Shown here one piece after another: positions 18,280-31,317 of a stretch of 64,000 nucleotides of DNA. The stretch comes from Bacteroidota bacterium (GTDB lineage Bacteria; Bacteroidota; Bacteroidia; 2-12-FULL-35-15). The position numbers were made by a program, and so were the translations under genes. The stretch is from NCBI GenBank assembly GCA_005772895.1, contig SXIH01000040.1:477-64476 (forward strand), written 5' to 3'. Each line of letters starts with the position of its first letter. The first letter of the stretch is position 1. A model generated the notes under the pieces. The model was not told the origin of the DNA, did not search any database, and worked only from the letters and a program-made list of their open reading frames with translations.

Positions 18280-19103
18280 ACTACATCACTCATTTAAACA
18301 AAACGTTTGCAATTTTTTGTGAAGATGAAAGGCTAACGCCATTTCATGTGAGTTTGTATTTCAGCTTGTTTCAATACTGGAACATGGCAAGGTTTCGTAG
18401 TCCCATTTCAATCAGTCGCGATGAATTAATGCGGAGTTCAAAAATCGGTTCTGTAAATACCTACATCCGATGCATCAAAGAACTGGACAAATGGGCTTAC
18501 ATAAAATACATTCCATCATTCAATCCACAAAAAGGCTCTCAAGTTTACCTGTACAATTTTAATAATAGTAATAATAATGGCTCTGATATATCTGCTGATA
18601 AAGGCAATAATAAAACTGGTAAGAAAACTACTGGTAAAGCAGGTGAAACGCAAGTGATACCTTCTATAAACAATACAAACAAACTAAACAATACAAACAG
18701 TTTAAACGGCAATAAGCCCACACAAAAAAAAGTAATAATTAAAAAATCAATTTCAGATGGAAAAACCAAAAAAGAAAAAAGTTCCGGGAAAAAGAAAAAA
18801 GGCACAAAAGCCGAACATTCCCCCTCTCTATTGGAGAGGGAATCAGGTGGTGAGGCTCCAACTTCCCAAAGCGTTACAACTTATTTTACCGAAAAGCAAT
18901 GGCCAAGTGTTGAAGGTGAAAAATTTTTCAATCACTATGAGAGTAACGGTTGGTTAGTGGGCGGAAAAACACCAATGAGAAACTGGCAAGCTGCAGCACG
19001 TTACTGGATGTTGAACTCAGAAAAATTTAATAATGGCAAAACAAAACGAACAGCAGGAAAACTCCAGGCAAAAACTGGAAAAGATTACAACGAGCCACTA
19101 TGA
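18276..19103 (+). CDS. Putative replication initiator (N-terminal wHTH, C-terminal FFNHY..NGW..NW.AAA.W domain)
   Basis: HVSLYFSLFQYWN...ISISRDELM..SKIGS..TY..CIKEL wHTH, low-complexity linker, conserved C-terminal motif. 4-bp overlap with the HTH gene. Confidence 0.6.
   Translation: MNYITHLNKTFAIFCEDERLTPFHVSLYFSLFQYWNMARFRSPISISRDELMRSSKIGSVNTYIRCIKELDKWAYIKYIPSFNPQKGSQVYLYNFNNSNNNGSDISADKGNNKTGKKTTGKAGETQVIPSINNTNKLNNTNSLNGNKPTQKKVIIKKSISDGKTKKEKSSGKKKKGTKAEHSPSLLERESGGEAPTSQSVTTYFTEKQWPSVEGEKFFNHYESNGWLVGGKTPMRNWQAAARYWMLNSEKFNNGKTKRTAGKLQAKTGKDYNEPL
18821..18855 (+). repeat. REP-like palindrome inside a CDS
   Basis: CCCCTCTCTATTGGAGAGGGAATCAGGTGGTGAGG resembles the intergenic copy at 52314-52349. 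Confidence 0.6.
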
Positions 19104-19695
19104 GCAACAATTAATTTGGTTAGAAAAAAAAGGTATGGAAGTGTACGGGAATCATTTTAAAATAGTTGAGGAAGATAAGTTTTTATTGTGTCGCATTATA
19201 TGCTATTTTCTGCAAGATGAAAAACCTTCCGAAAAATTGAACATTAATTTTCAAAAAGGTATTTTAATCACTGGCCCTGTAGGTAGTGGAAAAACATCAA
19301 TCATGCACCTGATGCGCTTTTTTCTTCCTGCTCAAAATCGCTACAACATTAAATCCTGCCGCGATGTAAGTTTTGATTTCATAAAAGATGGTTACGAAAC
19401 AATACACAAATACAGTCGCCACAGTTTTAATAATCACAATCCGGTTACTTGGTGCTTTGATGATCTTGGAACCGAAAACAACTTGAAATACTTCGGTAAC
19501 GAGTGTAATGTGATGGCAGAAGTTTTATTAAGCCGTTACGATTTATTTGTAAGTCGCAAACTCCTTACTCATCTCACAACAAATCTCTCAGCTTCCGAAA
19601 TTGAAGAGCAATACGGCAATCGCGTTCGCTCTCGCCTTAGGGAAATGTTTAATCTCATTGCATTCGATAAACAAACAAAAGACAAACGAAAATAA
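19033..19695 (+). CDS. P-loop ATPase, DnaC/IstB-like helicase loader
   Basis: Walker A GPVGSGKT, Walker B CFDDLGTE, TTNLS...YG.RVRSRL.EMFN. Confidence 0.8.
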   Translation: MAKQNEQQENSRQKLEKITTSHYEQQLIWLEKKGMEVYGNHFKIVEEDKFLLCRIICYFLQDEKPSEKLNINFQKGILITGPVGSGKTSIMHLMRFFLPAQNRYNIKSCRDVSFDFIKDGYETIHKYSRHSFNNHNPVTWCFDDLGTENNLKYFGNECNVMAEVLLSRYDLFVSRKLLTHLTTNLSASEIEEQYGNRVRSRLREMFNLIAFDKQTKDKRK

Positions 19696-19721: not shown

Positions 19722-20510
19722 ATGTGTAAATCAAAAATTCAAGCATTCTTTAGAAAATTAAAAACGGTATTCGGTGGAAAAGGCCAAAGAAAAAATCTGG
19801 GACAAAATCCTCGAAACAATTATGAGCAATTAGAAAGAGAAAATAAATTAGTTCTTTCGTACTTAACAGTCCGAAAGATTATTGGAATATTGGGTTTACT
19901 TTTTCCATTAATTTTAGTTCTTGGTTCATTTATTTTAGGTCACTGCTGCAACATTCAAATTTCAATCAGCAATTATTATCACACCAACATGCGCGATGTC
20001 TTTGTTGGTTATGTCTGTACACTTTCAATTTTCATGCTCTCTTACAAAGGCTATGATTTAGCCGACCGTATTGTTTCAGCCCTTACCGGTATATTCGGTT
20101 TGGTGGTGGCATTAATGCCAACCAACCTCAAAACAGATCCTATCACCGGCTTAATCCCACAATGCAACATTTGGTGTAATGTTGAAAGGCACAACTGGAT
20201 AGGTATTGTGCACTTGGTCGCTGCAGGCTTATTCATCCTTGGCATGGCTTATTTTACACTTTTCCTTTTCACCAAAGGCGAAACTACCCCCACACCGCAA
20301 AAACTCATCAGGAACAAAATATACAAGATTTCCGGTTACATTATGCTTGCGTGCATGGGCATAATGATTGTCTTTTTCGCCTTACCCGACAGCCTAACGG
20401 CCGGTCTGCTCAAATTCAAACCCGTATTTTGGCTTGAAACCATCGCATTCGTAGCCTTCGGCTTCTCATGGTTGGTTAAAGGGGAGTTTTTGTTGAAAGA
20501 CAGCGTATAA
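19722..20510 (+). CDS. Multi-TM membrane protein (DUF998-like)
   Basis: SYLTVRKIIGILG...SISNYYHT.MRD.FVG...H.VAAGLF...WLE..AF.AFG.SWLVKG, about 6 TM. Confidence 0.6.
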   Translation: MCKSKIQAFFRKLKTVFGGKGQRKNLGQNPRNNYEQLERENKLVLSYLTVRKIIGILGLLFPLILVLGSFILGHCCNIQISISNYYHTNMRDVFVGYVCTLSIFMLSYKGYDLADRIVSALTGIFGLVVALMPTNLKTDPITGLIPQCNIWCNVERHNWIGIVHLVAAGLFILGMAYFTLFLFTKGETTPTPQKLIRNKIYKISGYIMLACMGIMIVFFALPDSLTAGLLKFKPVFWLETIAFVAFGFSWLVKGEFLLKDSV

Positions 20511-20652
20511 AACAGCTTAAAAATCAATGCTTCCTTAAAAGAAATCAGGGTTTTATCAAAAATAATATACTACCCTGATTTTTAATGTTTTTTTGTTACT
20601 TTCGGGTGGCTGTATTTCAGTTTATTATCTTCATAAATATTCGTTGGTCTAA

Positions 20653-21300
20653 ATGATAAAGAAAAAAATCCCATATAAAAAAGCGATGCCTGCGAAAAAA
20701 GCAACCACAAAAAAGGTGGTGCCCGCAAAGAAGCTTAAAATTATGGTTTCATCCACTGTCTATGGTTCAGAAAGTGATTTAGAGCAGATTTACGGTTTAT
20801 TGAAAGGATATGGTTATGAAGTAATAATGTCAAAGGAAGGGACAGTTTATGTGCCAATTGGATCTTCACCTACCCAGGCCTGTTTAAAAGCAGTTGAAGA
20901 TTGTGATTTATTTTTAGGCATTATCTTTCCAAGATATGGATCAGGTATTACGCATAAAGAATTTCAAAAAGCCCTCGAATTAGATAAACCAAGATGGTTC
21001 ATAACTCATCACTTTGTTCCTTTTTCCCGTGAGATTCTAAAGCAATTTATGTACACTTCTACTAATAAAAGAATTAAAACATTTAAGTTGAATAGAAACG
21101 GTGTTATGGACAGTGAAAAAGTAATTGATATGTATAATGATGCTATACAAAATGATTTAGACCCTAAGAAAAGAAAATCAAATTGGGCGCAACCGTTTTT
21201 TAGAACAAGCGAGATAATGCCTTTTATTAACACTCAGTTTAATGATCTTGAAAAGCGCAGGGAAGAGTTGTCTGAATATAATAAAACAAAGAAAAAATGA
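20653..21300 (+). CDS. DUF4062-domain protein with Lys/Ala/Pro-rich N-terminal tail
   Basis: IMVSSTVY..E.D.EQI...L...GY, CL.AVEDCDLFLGII..RYGSGITHKEF..A. Confidence 0.8.
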   Translation: MIKKKIPYKKAMPAKKATTKKVVPAKKLKIMVSSTVYGSESDLEQIYGLLKGYGYEVIMSKEGTVYVPIGSSPTQACLKAVEDCDLFLGIIFPRYGSGITHKEFQKALELDKPRWFITHHFVPFSREILKQFMYTSTNKRIKTFKLNRNGVMDSEKVIDMYNDAIQNDLDPKKRKSNWAQPFFRTSEIMPFINTQFNDLEKRREELSEYNKTKKK

Positions 21301-22796
21301 AAACAGACCAATTGATAAAAAACCTTATTAAGCAGAAAGAAAGCGAACAGCTTGAATTTGCCGAATCCTTAAGTAAGGAGCATATTGCTAATACTGTTTG
21401 TGGTTTTTTAAATGGTAAAGGTGGTCAGATTTTAATTGGAGTGAAAGAAAACGGAACGATTACAGGAATATCAAATGCAACAAAATACAAGGAGGAATTA
21501 CATAAATATTTTTCAAGCACATTGCTTCCAGAAGCCCCTATAACAATTAGCATTGAAGATGTAGATAATAAAAACATTGCCAACATAGAAGTATGGGAAG
21601 GTGCCAAAAAACCGTACATTTCCAATGGAAGTATATATTATCGTAAAAAAGACAAAACAGTTCGTGCCAGTTCAAAAGAAATATCAGAATTAATACATAG
21701 CCGTCAGTTATCAGAAACACATTGGGAAAGACAAATTGTATTAGGAGTAGAATTAAAAGACCTTGATACTTCCGAGATAAAAAGCACAATAAAAAATTTA
21801 ACTGACTTTGGTAGTGCAAAGAAATTCTCAGGAGATGTATTGGATTTTTTAACTCACTATGGCTTATTTCAGAATGGATATTTCACTAACTCAGCGGTAG
21901 TGTTATTTGCAAAAGAACCTTCGAGATTCCTACCACAGGTAAGATTCAGAGTTTCAATTTTAAAAGATGAAAAAACGGGTAACAAGTTTATTAACGATAA
22001 ACTATTGGAAGGTAATTTATTTAAAAACTTCAGGGATATAGAACAGTATTTGCAGGCAAATTTAGAGCATCAGCGTGTGTTTAAAAGAGGCAAATGGCAA
22101 CGAACAGATGAATATATTTATCCTACCGAAGCTTTAAGAGAAGGAATAATAAACGCTTTGGTACATCGTAATTACGAAAATATTTCTGGAGGAGCCTCTC
22201 TTATTCTTTATAATGATAGATTAGAAATAACCAATACAGGAAAATTACCGGATAATATGACTGTAGCTGATCTAAAGGTTAGTCATATTTCTTCACCTCC
22301 TAATCCCGATATTGCACAGATATGTTTTTTAAAGGGTTATATTGAAAAGATAGGAAGAGGAACAATTAAAATAATAGAAGAGTTTAAAAAAGCTAAACTT
22401 AAAGAACCTGTATGGAAAACAAGTGGAGGAACTGTAAAACTTACATTCTATAATAATCTTAAACAAAATGATAAGGGAGTAACTGAGGGAGTAATTAGGG
22501 GAATAACTGAGGGAATAAGTAAAACTACAATGGCTAAAATTGAGGCTGTAGTTGAGGGAGTAACTGAGGGAGTAACTGAGGGAGTAAAAAGTAAGATAAA
22601 AGATACTGTACTTGCTATTTATAAACATGAAGGTATAAATACCAATGAAATAGCTGACGCTATTGGAGTACCTGTTAAGAGTTTAGAAAGACACATAAAG
22701 CTTTTAAAAGAGGCTAAAATAATTGAATTTAAAGGTGCTCCAAGAACAGGAGGATATCACATTGCTAAACGTATTATTAATAAAACAAAAAAATAA
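21297..22796 (+). CDS. AlbA_2 (Schlafen-like) + HATPase_c_4 (RecG-C-like) + wHTH protein
   Basis: ESEQLEF..., CGFLN.KGG.ILIGV, YP..ALREGIINALVHRNY, IEITNTG.L, PNPDIA.....GYIEKIGRG, C-terminal HTH ending G....GGY. Confidence 0.88.
   Translation: MKTDQLIKNLIKQKESEQLEFAESLSKEHIANTVCGFLNGKGGQILIGVKENGTITGISNATKYKEELHKYFSSTLLPEAPITISIEDVDNKNIANIEVWEGAKKPYISNGSIYYRKKDKTVRASSKEISELIHSRQLSETHWERQIVLGVELKDLDTSEIKSTIKNLTDFGSAKKFSGDVLDFLTHYGLFQNGYFTNSAVVLFAKEPSRFLPQVRFRVSILKDEKTGNKFINDKLLEGNLFKNFRDIEQYLQANLEHQRVFKRGKWQRTDEYIYPTEALREGIINALVHRNYENISGGASLILYNDRLEITNTGKLPDNMTVADLKVSHISSPPNPDIAQICFLKGYIEKIGRGTIKIIEEFKKAKLKEPVWKTSGGTVKLTFYNNLKQNDKGVTEGVIRGITEGISKTTMAKIEAVVEGVTEGVTEGVKSKIKDTVLAIYKHEGINTNEIADAIGVPVKSLERHIKLLKEAKIIEFKGAPRTGGYHIAKRIINKTKK
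22475..22586 (+). repeat. 12-bp coding tandem repeats (GVTE units)
   Basis: GAGGGAGTAACT units in two blocks encoding GVTEGVIRGITEGI and EGVTEGVTEGV. Confidence 0.85.
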
Positions 22797-22797
22797 C

Positions 22798-23136
22798 ATG
22801 CCGGTAAAAGTAACAACAGTTGACATTTTAAAGAAGTACTTTGAAGGAGTTACAAAAAGAGCTAATCACCATGCTCCGCAAGCAGACAGTGTAATCTACG
22901 CTTTACTTGGTATAATAGTTCTCAAAAAAGATGATGGAACAGACATCGAAGTTAGAGGTAGCAGTGATGATGCAACAGGCAATATTCTTTGGGTAACAAT
23001 CAATGGAACAAAGTACGCCTTTAGGTACGAACATTCGGATAATACAATAGAAATCAGAAGAAATTCGTATAGTGGACCGGTATTATTAAAAGTTGATAAT
23101 ACCACTACAGTAAATAATATTTTAGCCTTATTTTAA
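22798..23136 (+). CDS. VCH_CASS14-like (integron cassette protein family) small protein
   Basis: Y..GV..RA.HHA, NILWVTING..YAF.Y.H....IEIR......DN.T matches my recollection of Vibrio Cass14. Start moved from 22723; 1-bp gap to the upstream stop. Confidence 0.7.
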   Translation: MPVKVTTVDILKKYFEGVTKRANHHAPQADSVIYALLGIIVLKKDDGTDIEVRGSSDDATGNILWVTINGTKYAFRYEHSDNTIEIRRNSYSGPVLLKVDNTTTVNNILALF

Positions 23137-23137
23137 T

Positions 23138-23215
23138 GGCGTTCCCTTCGGGCGGTCTTTCTGCTGCTATCTTTTTATGAAGAATAAAAAGGATATCCGC
23201 TGCAATCCCTAACGC
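23138..23215 (+). repeat. Structured palindromic repeat, resembling the Flavo-1 RNA motif
   Basis: GCGTT...AACGC outer stem, TATCTTTTTAT/ATAAAAAGGATA inner stem, two GCTGC direct units. Rfam identity is from memory only. Confidence 0.45.
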
Positions 23216-23299
23216 ATTAAATCCTACTACAAAGAAACATTCCGTTCAAGGAGAGAAGATCCTACACACAAGCCAACACACAGGTTATAAGGTGTTCCT

Positions 23300-23900
23300 C
23301 AGCTTGTGCAGAGCAAAAAGATGCGCCAAACCAATGTAGCATTTGCTTTTTCGTACTGTTTTTTTAAGGTTTTAAGCAAAAGCTACATTGCCCGCTTCCG
23401 TTGCTCATTCCGTAAACTACATTCCGCTACTCAGCGGGTTAAAAGTATTGTCACACTTTTTGCAATTTGCACGAGCTTCGTCACGGCAGCCTCCTTTGTC
23501 CTGTCAAGCCACTTCATTCATTGCGTTGCGGTTGCCCGGTCATTCGCAAAATAAATTTTAAATAGCGGTGCTCATTTCTCTGGGCAATCCTCACTCCATT
23601 CATTTCAGTCGCTTGTCAGTCCACCGGCTGCCCATAATTTTGCTCGCCTGCTGGTCGCTTTGGGCTGCGGGGCTGTCATAGTTTTTGTAAGAAGAACAAA
23701 AACTCCGCCAGCCCCTTGTGTTTACAACATAGGTCGCACCCGTGCCTTAGTCGGCACTCCCGTGCTCCCACCCAAAGCTCCACTCGCAGGACGGCTCGCT
23801 AAAGCTGCACAAGTGTCCGCAAACCGTTCCGCGAAAAGCTTCACTATATGCAGCCACTTCTCCTACCGCACAGCCGCAGGCGCTATAACCCCAACCCACA
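23300..23900. other. GC-enriched non-coding region with multiple imperfect hairpins
   Basis: For example CAATGTAGCATTTGCTT...AAGCAAAAGCTACATTG. Visibly GC-richer than flanks, and its ORFs have atypical composition. Confidence 0.5.
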
Positions 23901-23909
23901 AAAAGCATT

Positions 23910-23951
23910 TATTTAAGTATTTGCTTAAATACGAAAATATAACTACCTTTG
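23910..23951 (+). promoter_or_regulatory. ArsR/SmtB operator and -7 promoter
   Basis: TATTTAAG-N6-CTTAAATA inverted repeat (23910-23931), TACCTTTG at 23944-23951. Confidence 0.65.
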
Positions 23952-23955
23952 TCAA

Positions 23956-24327
23956 ATGGAAGGAAACTCTTGTATCAGGGTATATGCTGACCCAACACAG
24001 ATTAAGAACTGTAAGGAATTATTGCGGACAAACTCTGAAGCCTTTGAGAATCTTGCAAAAGTTCTAGAGTTGGCAGGTAATGAAGTCCGGTTAAAAATTC
24101 TTTTTCTTCTCGAAGAGGAAAATGAATTATGTCCCTGTGATTTGAGTGATATTCTTGGTATGAGTATCCCTGCAGTTTCACAACATTTGCGAAAACTGAA
24201 AGACGGTAATATTCTTATCACAAGGCGTGAGGCCCAAACCATATATTATTCGCTGAAAAAAGAACACCTAAAAATTCTTAAACCATTTTTCAAATTCATT
24301 CGTCAGTCGAATGTTATTACAGAATAG
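23956..24327 (+). CDS. ArsR/SmtB metalloregulator
   Basis: SCIRV...C, LAGNEVRLKIL.LL....LCPCDLSDIL..S.PAVSQHLRKLKD. Confidence 0.93.
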   Translation: MEGNSCIRVYADPTQIKNCKELLRTNSEAFENLAKVLELAGNEVRLKILFLLEEENELCPCDLSDILGMSIPAVSQHLRKLKDGNILITRREAQTIYYSLKKEHLKILKPFFKFIRQSNVITE

Positions 24328-24329
24328 CC

Positions 24330-24926
24330 ATGAAACAAGGTAAACTAATAGGAGCCGGAATTCTATCTGCTATTGCAGCGTCCCTTTGTTGTATCACTCC
24401 GGTATTAGCATTAATAGCAGGTACAAGTGGCGCAGCTTCGGCATTCTCTTGGATTGAGCCATACAGACCATACCTGATAGGCTTAACCGCTGTGGTACTT
24501 GGTTTTGCTTGGTATCAAAAACTAAAACCTCAGCAAAAAACTGATTGTGATTGCGCAGTAGATGAAAAACCAAAATTCCTGCAGAGTAAAAAATTTCTGT
24601 TCATAGTTACAGTATTTGCAGTCTTGATGATTGCGTTCCCATATTACGCAAAATTATTCTATCCAAGCCCTGAGAAGGAAGTAATCATCGTTGATAAGTC
24701 AAATATCCGCAAAGTTGAATTTACTATTTCCGGCATGACCTGTGCCAGTTGTGCGGAACACGTATCGCATGAGGTGAATAAACTAACCGGTATCATCAGC
24801 GTGAATGCTTCTTATGAACATGGCAATGCTATAGTAGAGTTTGAAGATACAAAAACAACTATTACCGAAATCGAATCCGCAATAAATTCTACTGGTTATA
24901 TCGCAGCAGAAAAAAAGGAAAAATAA
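24330..24926 (+). CDS. merTP: MerT-MerP fusion heavy-metal transporter
   Basis: ASLCCITP TM motif, CDC loop, C-terminal HMA domain GMTCASC. Confidence 0.88.
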   Translation: MKQGKLIGAGILSAIAASLCCITPVLALIAGTSGAASAFSWIEPYRPYLIGLTAVVLGFAWYQKLKPQQKTDCDCAVDEKPKFLQSKKFLFIVTVFAVLMIAFPYYAKLFYPSPEKEVIIVDKSNIRKVEFTISGMTCASCAEHVSHEVNKLTGIISVNASYEHGNAIVEFEDTKTTITEIESAINSTGYIAAEKKEK

Positions 24927-24927
24927 C

Positions 24928-25137
24928 ATGGAAATTATCACTAAATCAACCATCACTTGCCCAGTATGTGGTCACAAAAAGGTAGAAGTAATGCCAACTG
25001 ACGCCTGCCAATACTTTTATGAATGTGAGAAATGCAAAACCCTTCTGAAACCAAAGCAAGGAGATTGTTGCGTTTATTGCAGCTATGGTTCCGTTAAATG
25101 CCCACCGATGCAACAAAATAATTCCTGCTGTAAATAG
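24928..25137 (+). CDS. GDCCVxC-domain Cys-rich protein
   Basis: TCPVCGH...MP.DACQYFYECEKC...LKPKQGDCCVYCSYG..KCPP. Confidence 0.9.
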   Translation: MEIITKSTITCPVCGHKKVEVMPTDACQYFYECEKCKTLLKPKQGDCCVYCSYGSVKCPPMQQNNSCCK

Positions 25138-31238: not shown

Positions 31239-31312
31239 GACCCCATAGCTCAGCTGGATAGAGCAACGGTTTTCTAAACCGTAGGCCTTTGGTTCGAATC
31301 CAAATGGGGTCA
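31239..31312 (+). tRNA. tRNA-Arg (anticodon TCT)
   Basis: GACCCCA/TGGGGTC acceptor stem, GCTCAGCTGGATAGAGC D arm, ACGGT-TT-TCT-AA-ACCGT anticodon arm, GGTTCGAATCC T arm. Confidence 0.97.
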
Positions 31313-31317
31313 CCTTT

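Follow-up and report, generated by a model that had tools for sequence, protein, structure and literature searches.

The window, the 64,000-nucleotide stretch of DNA analysed here, carries a pair of overlapping genes that is, on balance, best read as a two-gene candidate anti-phage module, probably of the abortive-infection type, in which an NADase is controlled by an ATP-dependent Schlafen-wHTH partner. The conserved unit consists of the genes for a DUF4062 protein and a Schlafen-ATPase. These are regarded as one functional unit because of their adjacency, translational coupling and co-evolution, their occurrence as a fusion protein, and their restriction-modification neighbours. According to the window sequence and its ORF listing, positions 20653-23136 hold three plus-strand genes; these and the adjoining features are as follows.

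20653..21300, + strand: gene 1, a free-standing DUF4062 protein (TIR-like/nucleoside-deoxyribosyltransferase-like), 215 aa (Pfam, AF2, Foldseek)
21297..22796, + strand: gene 2, a 'Schlatpase'-wHTH protein (SLFN_AlbA_2, GHKL ATPase and wHTH), 499 aa (Pfam, AF2, Foldseek)
22798..23136, + strand: gene 3, a Cass14-like small protein, 112 aa (PF18315, PDB 3IMO, phrog_5959)
19722..20510, + strand: a multi-TM ORF, 262 aa, excluded from the module
20540..20583, + strand: a hairpin with a U-run, likely the terminator of the membrane-protein gene (RNA fold)

Gene order and pairing across genomes

Direct reading of the sequence places a 4-bp overlap (ATGA, 21297-21300) between genes 1 and 2, and the TAA stop codon of gene 2 (22794-22796) is followed one base later by the ATG of gene 3 (22798). 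The ORF listing includes an alternative TTG start for gene 3 at 22723; the ATG at 22798 is taken to be the real start because all of the Cass14-like homologs (47/47) are about 112 aa long. The ORFs, the overlap at 21297, the 1-bp gap and the domains had been described in the same way in an earlier note on this DNA, and both the sequence and Pfam bear that description out.

Upstream of these genes there is a strong match to RteC (E 9e-82), together with HTH_17 and an AAA protein (19033-19695) that matches DnaC-like helicase-loader PHROGs (E 1e-13). These matches support in part the 'replication core' that had been proposed for this region, which also includes a 275-aa protein, which has no family in Pfam or NCBIfam and matches only PHROGs of unknown function (best E 3.2e-14). 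The element that carries the gene pair as cargo is an integrative one of the RteC type. To delimit the island, direct repeats (at least 13 nt) of the tRNA-Arg region were sought but not found, and no restriction-modification system adjoins the window's copy of the pair. The hairpin at 20540-20583 (12-bp stem, -15.9 kcal/mol, z -2.67 by RNA folding) lies after the membrane gene in the 142-bp spacer 5' of gene 1, and was overlooked by a simple terminator scan because its loop exceeds 8 nt. The transcription unit of the module is likely to begin 3' of it.

Gene neighbourhoods were compared in 160 independent loci: 80 from genomes, with DUF4062 as the anchor, and 80 from metagenomes, with the Schlafen-ATPase subfamily as the anchor. 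A Schlafen-ATPase gene is found immediately downstream of DUF4062 in every genome locus (80/80), and DUF4062 is found immediately upstream of the Schlafen-ATPase in 78 of the 80 metagenome loci, or 71/72 when only loci with 600 nt or more of sequence on that side are counted; overall, 158 of the 160 loci have the partner gene. The overlap between the two genes is mostly 4 or 8 bp, and the pair is usually translationally coupled. The pairwise-identity matrices of the two proteins are correlated (r 0.68; the highest value under permutation was 0.09), and in one 640-aa fusion protein (P0387) DUF4062, SLFN_AlbA_2 and HATPase_c_4 are joined in a single chain, although this fusion has a single representative and could be explained by a sequencing frameshift. 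With adjacency of 80/80 and 78/80, this correlation and the fusion, the earlier suggestion that DUF4062 and the Schlafen/ATPase/wHTH protein form one unit in a defence context is supported.

The pair is distributed over many bacterial phyla and methanogens. Two relatives (L082 and L083, at 79-80% DUF4062 identity) contain the pair alone, with neither a Cass14-like nor a membrane gene, and a copy of the pair on a Hymenobacter plasmid adjoins traK/M/N. A distant DUF4062 protein encoded on the Acinetobacter plasmid pC9_4 has a partner with HATPase_c_4 and a wHTH, but no Schlafen match.

The two proteins and a proposed division of labour

Gene 1 belongs to the DUF4062 family, with a match to PF13271 of 54.3 bits (E 1.6e-14) against a gathering cut-off of 24.7. 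The protein consists of a lysine-rich N-terminal tail (aa 1-28) and a single alpha/beta domain, modelled by AF2 (pLDDT 81.7) as five strands and two C-terminal helices and lacking a sensor domain of its own; most proteins of the family have 175-230 aa. A putative catalytic glutamate, Glu103, lies within the motif T100-H-K-E103-F, of which T100 and E103 are invariant in all 140 distinct DUF4062 family members. Foldseek places nucleoside 2-deoxyribosyltransferases at the top of the matches, followed by the TIR domains of SPARTA, RPP1 and SfSTING. PADLOC v2, NCBIfam and PHROGs provide no named system for this protein, and a PDB sequence search gave no matches for gene 1 or gene 2, with no DUF4062 structure in the PDB copy searched. 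A tblastn search of phage records detected no DUF4062 relative, and a search of a plasmid collection with DUF4062 yielded two distant matches only.

DUF4062 has recently been characterised as a TIR-like NADase that provides anti-phage defence by abortive infection, in the single-gene systems Swarozyc (10.64898/2026.05.01.722283) and Evangelion (10.64898/2026.06.25.731849). The earlier note's lead, a 'Rossmann-like' domain of defence-type proteins, pointed to defence as these 2026 preprints do, but as a description of the domain it is outdated by them. The catalytic glutamates in these systems are KpSwz E97 and Eva01 E87 (10.64898/2026.05.01.722283; 10.64898/2026.06.25.731849), to which E103 of gene 1 appears, from its position in the motif, to be equivalent. 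By homology to the characterised DUF4062 proteins, gene 1 is predicted to encode an NAD+ hydrolase, and its subfamily would share this activity. As its top Foldseek matches are nucleoside 2-deoxyribosyltransferases and not TIR NADases, the substrate could be another nucleotide.

Gene 2 contains an SLFN_AlbA_2 domain (aa 15-124, nt 21339-21668, E 3.7e-19), a linker or middle region, a GHKL ATPase domain (HATPase_c_4, aa ~270-385, nt ~22104-22451, E 1.2e-16), a low-complexity linker with TEGV repeats and a C-terminal winged helix (aa ~440-490, nt ~22614-22766), for which the Pfam matches to HTH_20 and HTH_24 are weak and near the cut-offs. Members of its family are 460-530 aa long. Foldseek searches with the AF2 model (pLDDT 74.6) matched 3LMM (DIP2311, E 1e-21), SLFN5/11/12/14, the tRNase domain of SAMD9, the CA domains of histidine kinases and ArsR/MarR winged helices. 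Neither Pfam nor Foldseek detected the ligand-sensing domains SLOG, CARF or SAVED. In PADLOC, gene 2 has as its best match a pAgo model (E 1.3e-20), which it covers at model positions 54-455 only, corresponding to the SLFN-GHKL part. The PADLOC check proposed earlier gives no match for the DUF4062 protein and a partial one for its partner.

The two active sites of this protein differ in their conservation. Nine GHKL residues (E282, N286, H290, N313, G315, N336, P337, G353 and G355) are invariant in 139/139 family members. The Schlafen nuclease motif, Ex4(E/D)xK, is less well preserved: E15 is found in 124/139 sequences, E/D20 in 131/139 and K22 in 97/139, and the full motif in 89/139 (64%), leaving it incomplete in 36%. 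In the window the motif is E15-x4-E20-x-A22 and lacks the lysine. At its E, E/D and K positions it reads EEA in the window, EEV in L081 and EEI in both L082 and L083, the last two of which are also without the third acidic residue. The degenerate motif suggests that in the window's clade the main role of the Schlafen domain is probably binding or sensing.

A division of labour can be proposed on this basis. In the single-gene systems Swarozyc and Evangelion, an AUX region is needed in cis for defence, and the Swarozyc AUX region binds the phage portal. Gene 1 corresponds essentially to the catalytic domain alone, minus this C-terminal auxiliary sensor domain, and gene 2 would supply the missing sensing and switching in trans. 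Gene 2 may bind a nucleic acid or protein that signals infection, which would be the trigger, and ATP binding at its GHKL domain may then drive oligomerisation, as shown for SLFN-pAgo. In RzAgo, the SLFN-pAgo studied, the Schlafen-GHKL module is an ATP-driven tRNase that tetramerises upon ATP binding and has E314 and N318 in its ATP site (10.64898/2026.05.29.728809). If the two proteins form a physical complex, the assembly would gather DUF4062 subunits into an active NADase, and the resulting NAD+ depletion would stop phage growth. Members with a full Ex4(E/D)xK motif may have a second output, in that their Schlafen domain would cleave tRNA.

The direction of control proposed here could also be reversed. 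In a Thoeris-like arrangement, DUF4062 would sense infection and make a nucleotide signal or otherwise activate its partner, and the Schlafen-GHKL protein would cleave tRNA. A tRNase effector function in defence has been demonstrated for Schlafen-GHKL modules and for other prokaryotic Schlafens, Schlafens activated by cyclic oligoadenylate are described in PMC13462974, and conservation of E15 and E20 is about 90%. As the nuclease motif is intact in 64% of partners, the effector could be the Schlafen domain, and DUF4062 the sensor or signal maker. Against this, 30% of partners, among them the entire window clade, have lost the nuclease lysine, gene 2 has no detected SLOG, CARF or SAVED domain to receive a signal, and the 4-bp overlaps and the fusion suggest a stoichiometric complex and not a diffusible signal. 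The reversed arrangement is considered unlikely, although it is the strongest of the alternatives.

Restriction-modification neighbours and relation to known systems

Restriction-modification subunits make up about a third of the immediate neighbours of the pair. Type I HsdS, HsdM or HsdR genes occur in at least 25 of the 80 genome loci; the typical order on one strand in Bacteroidota is HsdR-HsdS-[pair]-HsdM, and in methanogens HsdM-[pair]-HsdS. Of 119 immediate neighbours, type I S subunits account for 19 and type I methyltransferases for about 23 (S or M together, 42/119), and Eco57I-like, GmrSD and HEPN proteins are found as well. A third conserved gene was sought by clustering the 932 neighbour ORFs of 80 loci, and only HsdS, HsdM and HsdR recurred. 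Hsd genes do not adjoin the pair in most loci, among them the window, L081-L083 and the Hymenobacter plasmid, which indicates that restriction-modification is not an obligatory partner of the pair.

Two anticodon nucleases, PrrC and RloC, are encoded within type I restriction-modification loci, and PrrC, with EcoprrI, acts as a guard of type I restriction-modification. Like them, the pair is a probable abortive-type module that often lies between hsd genes and includes a domain of the tRNA-nuclease type. The proteins are unrelated, however, and the embedding of the pair is frequent but not obligatory, with no evidence of control by Hsd proteins. A comparable guard function, in which the Hsd complex holds the pair inactive until a phage anti-restriction protein causes it to fire, would account for the recurrent gene orders and the many S and M neighbours, and the SLFN-pAgo preprint (10.64898/2026.05.29.728809) reports Schlatpase modules that are either fused to type I S subunits or encoded next to them. 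It is nevertheless improbable as a general explanation, given the majority of loci in which Hsd genes are not adjacent.

An extended form of the preferred reading includes such sensing as one element. In it, the Schlafen domain would have exchanged its nuclease function for that of a sensor, within an ATP-driven scaffold that assembles a sensor-less DUF4062 NADase and possibly senses the inactivation of type I restriction-modification, and the resulting system is widespread in bacteria and methanogens. This fuller version is put forward tentatively, and falls short of being probable.

The pair might instead be a toxin-antitoxin or addiction module that stabilises mobile elements and restriction-modification operons, with DUF4062 as the toxin, the wHTH partner as a neutralising and autoregulating protein, and no dedicated anti-phage role. 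A compact, coupled two-gene unit on mobile DNA (the RteC element and the Hymenobacter plasmid), a DNA-binding wHTH on the larger protein and an NADase as a plausible toxin would all be in keeping with this. A 499-aa ATPase with an invariant ATP site exceeds the needs of a neutralising antitoxin, though, and the dominant context of the pair is type I restriction-modification operons on chromosomes. As an account of the pair on its own, addiction has little probability. Many abortive-infection systems are themselves similar to toxin-antitoxin modules, and so this explanation overlaps with the two-gene anti-phage module and does not exclude it.

Among the known systems, Swarozyc (KpSwz) and Evangelion (Eva01) share with the pair the PF13271 family, the invariant glutamate of the T-x-x-E motif, a TIR/NDT-like fold and a spread over mobile elements and defence islands, and a similar output of NAD+ depletion and abortive infection is expected. 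By the descriptions of those systems, the pair is set apart by the missing AUX region in gene 1 (AF2, 215 aa) and by the partner gene found in 158/160 loci. Gene 2 has exactly the architecture of the Schlatpase class (SLFN_AlbA_2, HATPase_c_4 and a C-terminal HTH), which is tied to restriction-modification loci and is represented by RzAgo (10.64898/2026.05.29.728809) and by the pSlfn HisKinase-HTH class (PMC13056530). The E314/N318 pair of the RzAgo ATP site corresponds to E282 and N286 of gene 2 (139/139). About 60,000 Schlatpases have been counted (10.64898/2026.05.29.728809), and the pSlfn HisKinase-HTH class accounts for 19% of prokaryotic Schlafens (PMC13056530). In these papers no conserved partner is reported and the Schlafen domain is treated as a tRNase effector, whereas the gene 2 subfamily is preceded by DUF4062. 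In a published test, Schlafen-histidine-kinase-type fusions alone gave no defence, which fits the need for a partner but would equally fit a role outside defence.

SPARTA (short pAgo TIR-APAZ) and Thoeris likewise combine a TIR-type enzyme with a separate nucleic-acid-binding or sensor protein, and have an oligomerisation-dependent NADase. The pair has no Argonaute, APAZ, SIR2, SLOG or Macro domain, its TIR-like domain is of the DUF4062 lineage and its partner is a GHKL ATPase. No PADLOC model for Thoeris matched gene 1 or 2, no SLOG, Macro or SIR2 domain was found with Pfam, and the window's ORF listing contains no further ORF of the Argonaute MID-PIWI kind that would indicate short pAgo/SPARTA.

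The earlier statement that no named system has this gene combination agrees with the PADLOC v2 result for the DUF4062 protein and with a search of literature text, in which no paper naming both 'DUF4062' and 'Schlafen' was found. In the text of a further DUF4062 preprint (10.64898/2026.09.04.749371), the word 'Schlafen' is absent and 'ATPase' appears twice. The pair may already be depicted in that preprint or in figure panels such as Swarozyc Fig. S1G ('selected DUF4062 operons').

Both domains, whose human counterparts include TEP1/NWD1 and SLFN11/SAMD9, were established as immune effectors only in 2025-2026, and in the literature examined DUF4062 and Schlafen are each handled as a self-contained single-gene system. 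In its extended form, the two-gene module would be the first split DUF4062 system controlled in trans. An obligate pairing kept from Bacteroidota to methanogens, with sensing in trans, would be a new architecture for DUF4062 immunity. It would also provide a functional hypothesis for one DUF4062-linked subfamily of the phenotype-less Schlafen-GHKL-HTH class, and a natural case of a Schlafen nuclease site decaying while the catalytic site of its partner remains invariant. For annotation, genes in type I restriction-modification operons that currently go by 'ATP-dependent DNA helicase RecG', 'RNA-binding domain-containing protein' or 'DUF4062 domain-containing protein' could become one recognisable unit.

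The Cass14-like and membrane genes

Gene 3 is a clear full-length homologue of the VCH_CASS14 integron cassette protein (PF18315, E 1.5e-18; PDB 3IMO, E 7.7e-23, residues 3-112; phrog_5959, E 2.5e-17), but is located here outside an integron and has no link to the pair elsewhere. It is probably co-transcribed with the pair in the window. The earlier note had assigned it the role of sensor component, and had suggested that gene-neighbourhood conservation of the trio be checked. The comparison does not support that role: a Cass14-like homologue occurs in 0/160 pair-carrying loci and the trio was found again only in L081. That locus contains the same RteC element at 92-94% protein identity, with all four genes in the same order, and is not an independent observation because it is a near-identical copy. 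The Cass14-like gene is a lineage-specific passenger and not a conserved member of the module.

The multi-TM ORF (19722-20510), proposed earlier as a fourth component, has no family match in Pfam, PADLOC, NCBIfam or PHROGs. Its homologue was detected in 1/160 loci, as a weak tblastn match (L055) situated 3 kb from the pair. This weak, non-adjacent match and the hairpin rule out the membrane gene as part of the module, and the presence of a terminator-like hairpin between it and DUF4062 argues that it is transcribed separately. A system of three or four genes with a Cass14-like ligand sensor and a multi-TM membrane effector is thus very improbable: the 1-bp gap after gene 2, the four-gene order in L081 and the defence-rich surroundings of some Cass14 homologues speak for it, but these two genes do not recur with the pair across the 160 loci, L082 and L083 have the pair alone, the hairpin splits off the membrane gene and Cass14 has a different recurrent partner elsewhere.

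Cass14 homologues are found in unrelated contexts, some of them rich in defence genes (after an Upx-like gene, or among TIR genes). Their recurrent partner, which was sought in the window and is absent there, is a protein of 72-76 aa encoded upstream with a 17-nt overlap, as seen in L084 and L090.

A conserved two-gene unit

The genes at the locus are as follows:

20653-21300, +, DUF4062 gene (gene 1), 215 aa; Pfam DUF4062, E 1.6e-14
21297-22796, +, Schlafen-ATPase gene (gene 2), 499 aa; Pfam SLFN_AlbA_2, E 3.7e-19, and HATPase_c_4, E 1.2e-16
22798-23136, +, Cass14-like gene, 112 aa; Pfam VCH_CASS14, E 1.5e-18

The ORF listing, the sequence and Pfam all agree with the earlier note on these three ORFs, their overlap and gap coordinates and their domains. 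On inspection of the sequence, genes 1 and 2 share an ATGA overlap at 21297-21300, and the TAA stop of gene 2 (22794-22796) is followed by a single base and then by the ATG of the Cass14-like gene at 22798. The C-terminus of the gene 2 protein is a winged helix by a weak Pfam match, and the Cass14-like protein has a full-length homologue in the integron-cassette protein PDB 3IMO (E 7.7e-23).

An alignment of the DUF4062 protein with 23 homologues, 55-77% identical to the query and nearly all of 175-230 aa, was used in a search that yielded 80 loci from one-genome-per-species contigs. A gene 2 homologue lies directly downstream of DUF4062 on the same strand in all 80, with an ORF overlap of 4 or 8 bp in most. 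The bacterial hosts include Bacteroidota, Neomarinimicrobiota, Thermotogota, Verrucomicrobiota, Cyanobacteriota (Sericytochromatia), Planctomycetota, Spirochaetota, Alpha-, Beta- and Deltaproteobacteria, Latescibacterota, Lentisphaerota and Clostridia, and the archaeal hosts include Methanoculleus and Methanomicrobiales. In the reverse test, on 80 metagenome loci fetched with an alignment of the gene 2 protein and 26 homologues, DUF4062 is directly upstream in 78, and one of the two exceptions is a contig that has no upstream room. Across 126 loci, the pairwise identities of one protein correlate with those of the other at r 0.68, the maximum over 500 permutations being 0.09. When 1.84 billion representative proteins were searched with a profile, 85 clusters scored E 1e-30 or better, nearly all of them stand-alone small proteins; one protein of 640 aa (P0387) carries DUF4062, SLFN_AlbA_2 and HATPase_c_4 within one chain and is a Rosetta-stone fusion, although as a single sequence it could be a frameshift artefact.

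Adjacency in both directions, the overlaps, the correlated identities and the fusion bear out the grouping of genes 1 and 2 in the earlier note, and the two almost certainly constitute one functional unit. The neighbourhood conservation that the note had proposed to examine in Bacteroidota extends well beyond that phylum, and it is genes 1 and 2 that co-occur, not the trio.

Other arrangements of these domains were also seen. A 373-aa library protein (P0421) has DUF4062 fused to a canonical TIR_2 domain, and several proteins of 350-410 aa have DUF4062 at the C-terminus and an unannotated N-terminal half. At one homologous locus (L011, 2747-5529), upstream of the copy linked to DUF4062 there are two more Schlafen-ATPase paralogues, which share 26-27% identity with the window protein and lack a DUF4062 of their own, so that the linkage is confined to one Schlafen-ATPase subfamily.

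Folds, conserved residues and a proposed mechanism

In its AF2 model (pLDDT 81.7), the gene 1 protein consists of one alpha/beta domain of five strands plus two terminal helices, and lacks any further domain. Structurally it comes closest to nucleoside 2-deoxyribosyltransferases; next come the TIR domains of SPARTA, RPP1, SfSTING and BtTir. All 140 distinct family sequences keep T100 and E103 of a T-x-x-E motif. DUF4062 is a TIR-like NADase by experiment: the anti-phage system Swarozyc acts by NAD+ depletion and abortive infection, is triggered when its auxiliary (AUX) domain binds the phage portal, and needs its catalytic Glu as well as the AUX domain for defence (bioRxiv 10.64898/2026.05.01.722283). 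For Evangelion, the preprint's text describes NAD+ depletion and abortive infection, the need for an auxiliary region, and E87 as the putative catalytic Glu (10.64898/2026.06.25.731849). The window DUF4062 family keeps the T-x-x-E motif but, unlike these two systems, has no AUX domain. Residues 1-28 of the window protein (20653-20736) form a lysine-rich, AKKA-type N-terminal tail, found in a subset of the family (about 205-217 aa) and missing from members of 175-195 aa, which could bind nucleic acid.

Structures similar to the gene 2 model (pLDDT 74.6) are the full-length structural-genomics protein 3LMM, those of mammalian Schlafens and the tRNase domain of SAMD9, together with ATP-binding domains of histidine kinases and winged helices of the ArsR/MarR type. 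The gene 2 protein shares the Schlatpase architecture (SLFN_AlbA_2 plus GHKL ATPase) of the SLFN-pAgo proteins, in which the GHKL domain's binding of ATP leads to tetramerisation and thereby to an active Schlafen tRNase (bioRxiv 10.64898/2026.05.29.728809). Among 139 distinct DUF4062 partners, the GHKL residues E282, N286, H290, N313, G315, N336, P337, G353 and G355 are invariant. The Schlafen nuclease motif is variable (E15 in 124/139, E/D20 in 131/139, K22 in 97/139) and complete in 89. It reads EEA in the window and, among the closest relatives, EEV in L081 and EEI in both L082 and L083, and the Lys is also missing from P0387 and from a Hymenobacter copy. A second unusual substitution in the window protein, besides A22, is N292, at a position of the 'HRDY' motif that holds D or E in 136/139.

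A more distant, small DUF4062 protein is found on the Acinetobacter baumannii plasmid pC9_4 (1984-4351 of the fetched locus), in an overlapping set of a 166-aa hypothetical protein, the 182-aa DUF4062 protein and a 440-aa 'Fic family protein'. The last consists of HATPase_c_4 and a Fic-like C-terminal wHTH, with no detectable Schlafen domain. In this sister architecture, the Schlafen domain has been replaced.

Taken together, the residue conservation and the Schlafen-less partner suggest that the part of the partner that cannot be spared is the GHKL-wHTH core, and that DUF4062 supplies the constant catalytic output. In the mechanism tentatively preferred here, which may be correct, the DUF4062 protein would be an NADase without a sensor of its own, activated when its Schlafen-GHKL-wHTH partner assembles in an ATP-dependent way, with tRNA cleavage as an extra output where the Schlafen motif is intact. 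The gene pairing and its coupling, the fusion, the folds, the pattern of conservation and the genomic context are observed; we infer the enzyme activity of this DUF4062 subfamily, a physical complex, what triggers the system and which protein controls the other. The main rival explanation makes DUF4062 the sensor or signal maker and the Schlafen protein the effector.

Genomic context and comparison with known systems

Among 932 clustered neighbour ORFs from the 80 genome loci, no families recur other than type I HsdS, HsdM and HsdR (Pfam), and type I Hsd genes are present in at least 25 loci. The usual order in Bacteroidota is HsdR-HsdS-[DUF4062-Schlafen]-HsdM on one strand, and in methanogens HsdM-[pair]-HsdS. 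The directly adjacent proteins of 150 aa or more (n=119) include 19 type I specificity subunits, about 23 type I methyltransferases, and Eco57I-like, GmrSD and HEPN proteins; the neighbourhoods also contain type ISP and OLD-family nucleases. On a Hymenobacter plasmid the pair adjoins traK/M/N, and it is in none of the phage records searched. This context is the signature of a horizontally moving defence-island gene pair, and the pair is likely to be an anti-phage module. A PrrC-like guard of type I restriction-modification and a toxin-antitoxin-like stabilisation role are both possible, and each is compatible with a defence function.

The immune roles of both component domains are already known; what looks new is the gene combination. 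No PADLOC v2 model matches the DUF4062 protein, and gene 2 matches only the Schlafen-GHKL part of a pAgo model and pieces of Aga models. As described in the text of the Swarozyc and Evangelion preprints (10.64898/2026.05.01.722283; 10.64898/2026.06.25.731849), DUF4062 systems are single-gene, and Schlafen, AlbA and HATPase go unmentioned in their main texts and supplementary text. A literature text search returned no paper with both 'DUF4062' and 'Schlafen'. The Schlafen papers found no conserved partner gene (PMC13056530; bioRxiv 10.64898/2026.05.29.728809), and among tested Schlafen systems only DUF262-Slfn and Ig-like-Slfn constructs gave defence (PMC13056530). Judged from the text of these two DUF4062 preprints and of the Schlafen papers, the pair looks undescribed as a system, in keeping with the earlier note, which knew of no named system with this combination.

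Flanking genes and the surrounding element

The earlier interpretation, in which the Cass14-like gene and perhaps an upstream membrane gene (19722-20510) belonged to the system, holds for the first two genes but not for the third and fourth. The Cass14-like protein has no tblastn match in any of the 160 fetched loci, and the membrane protein has one weak match, 3 kb away from the pair. The membrane ORF (262 aa) has no match in Pfam, PADLOC, NCBIfam or PHROGs, and a stable hairpin with a U-run lies between it and the DUF4062 gene. Among close relatives, the Cass14-like gene is found in L081 (DUF4062 94% identical), which is the same RteC element with the same gene order, including the membrane, Cass14 and ArsR/MerT genes; in L082 and L083 (79-80% identity) the pair stands alone, followed by convergent unrelated genes. 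The settings of 47 Cass14 homologues differ from locus to locus: 3' of a Upx-like gene and near SoFic (L086), amid ThsB_TIR, TIR_2 and NUDIX genes (L090), near TrwB, Dam and ASCH genes (L084) or beside housekeeping genes (L089). A three- or four-gene system is therefore unsupported by the neighbourhood counts, the closest relatives, the Cass14 contexts and the separating hairpin, and the Cass14-like gene is probably co-transcribed with the pair in the window as a passenger.

In L084 (4799-5339) and L090 (1298-1850), Cass14 is preceded, with a 17-nt overlap, by homologous acidic, helical proteins of 72-76 aa (39% identity, E 1e-18), and the two genes may form a small cassette of their own; this partner was looked for in the window and is absent. 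The Cass14-like protein also matches phrog_5959, a phage protein family without an assigned function.

Two features mark the surrounding element:

31-1215, tyrosine integrase, Bacteroidota-type, at the left edge of the window
31239-31314, tRNA-Arg(TCT) gene, about 30 kb right of the integrase

The region around the pair reads as an integrative element with ends not fixed, because the search for island ends found no repeat of the tRNA-Arg region of at least 13 nt. No tra genes turned up in the window. The "replication core" described upstream is plausible but only partly shown: its genes are those of RteC, an HTH_17 protein, a DnaC-like loader (PHROG E 1e-13) and a 275-aa protein that has no Pfam or NCBIfam family and matches only PHROG families of unknown function.

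Just 3' of the locus lies a metal-resistance-like cassette (23956-25137), made up of an ArsR-family regulator, a MerT-HMA fusion and a Cys-rich protein of 69 aa; L081 has it too. The intervening 23137-23955, about 820 bp, has no convincing ORF and a GC of 0.44, compared with about 0.33 in its surroundings. Directly past the Cass14-like stop, at 23146-23222 (-), the Flavo-1 RNA motif (RF01705) is matched over its full model length at 39 bits (E 1.2e-6), below the gathering score of 42. Apart from two indels, 22700-24000 aligns to L081 at 89% identity.
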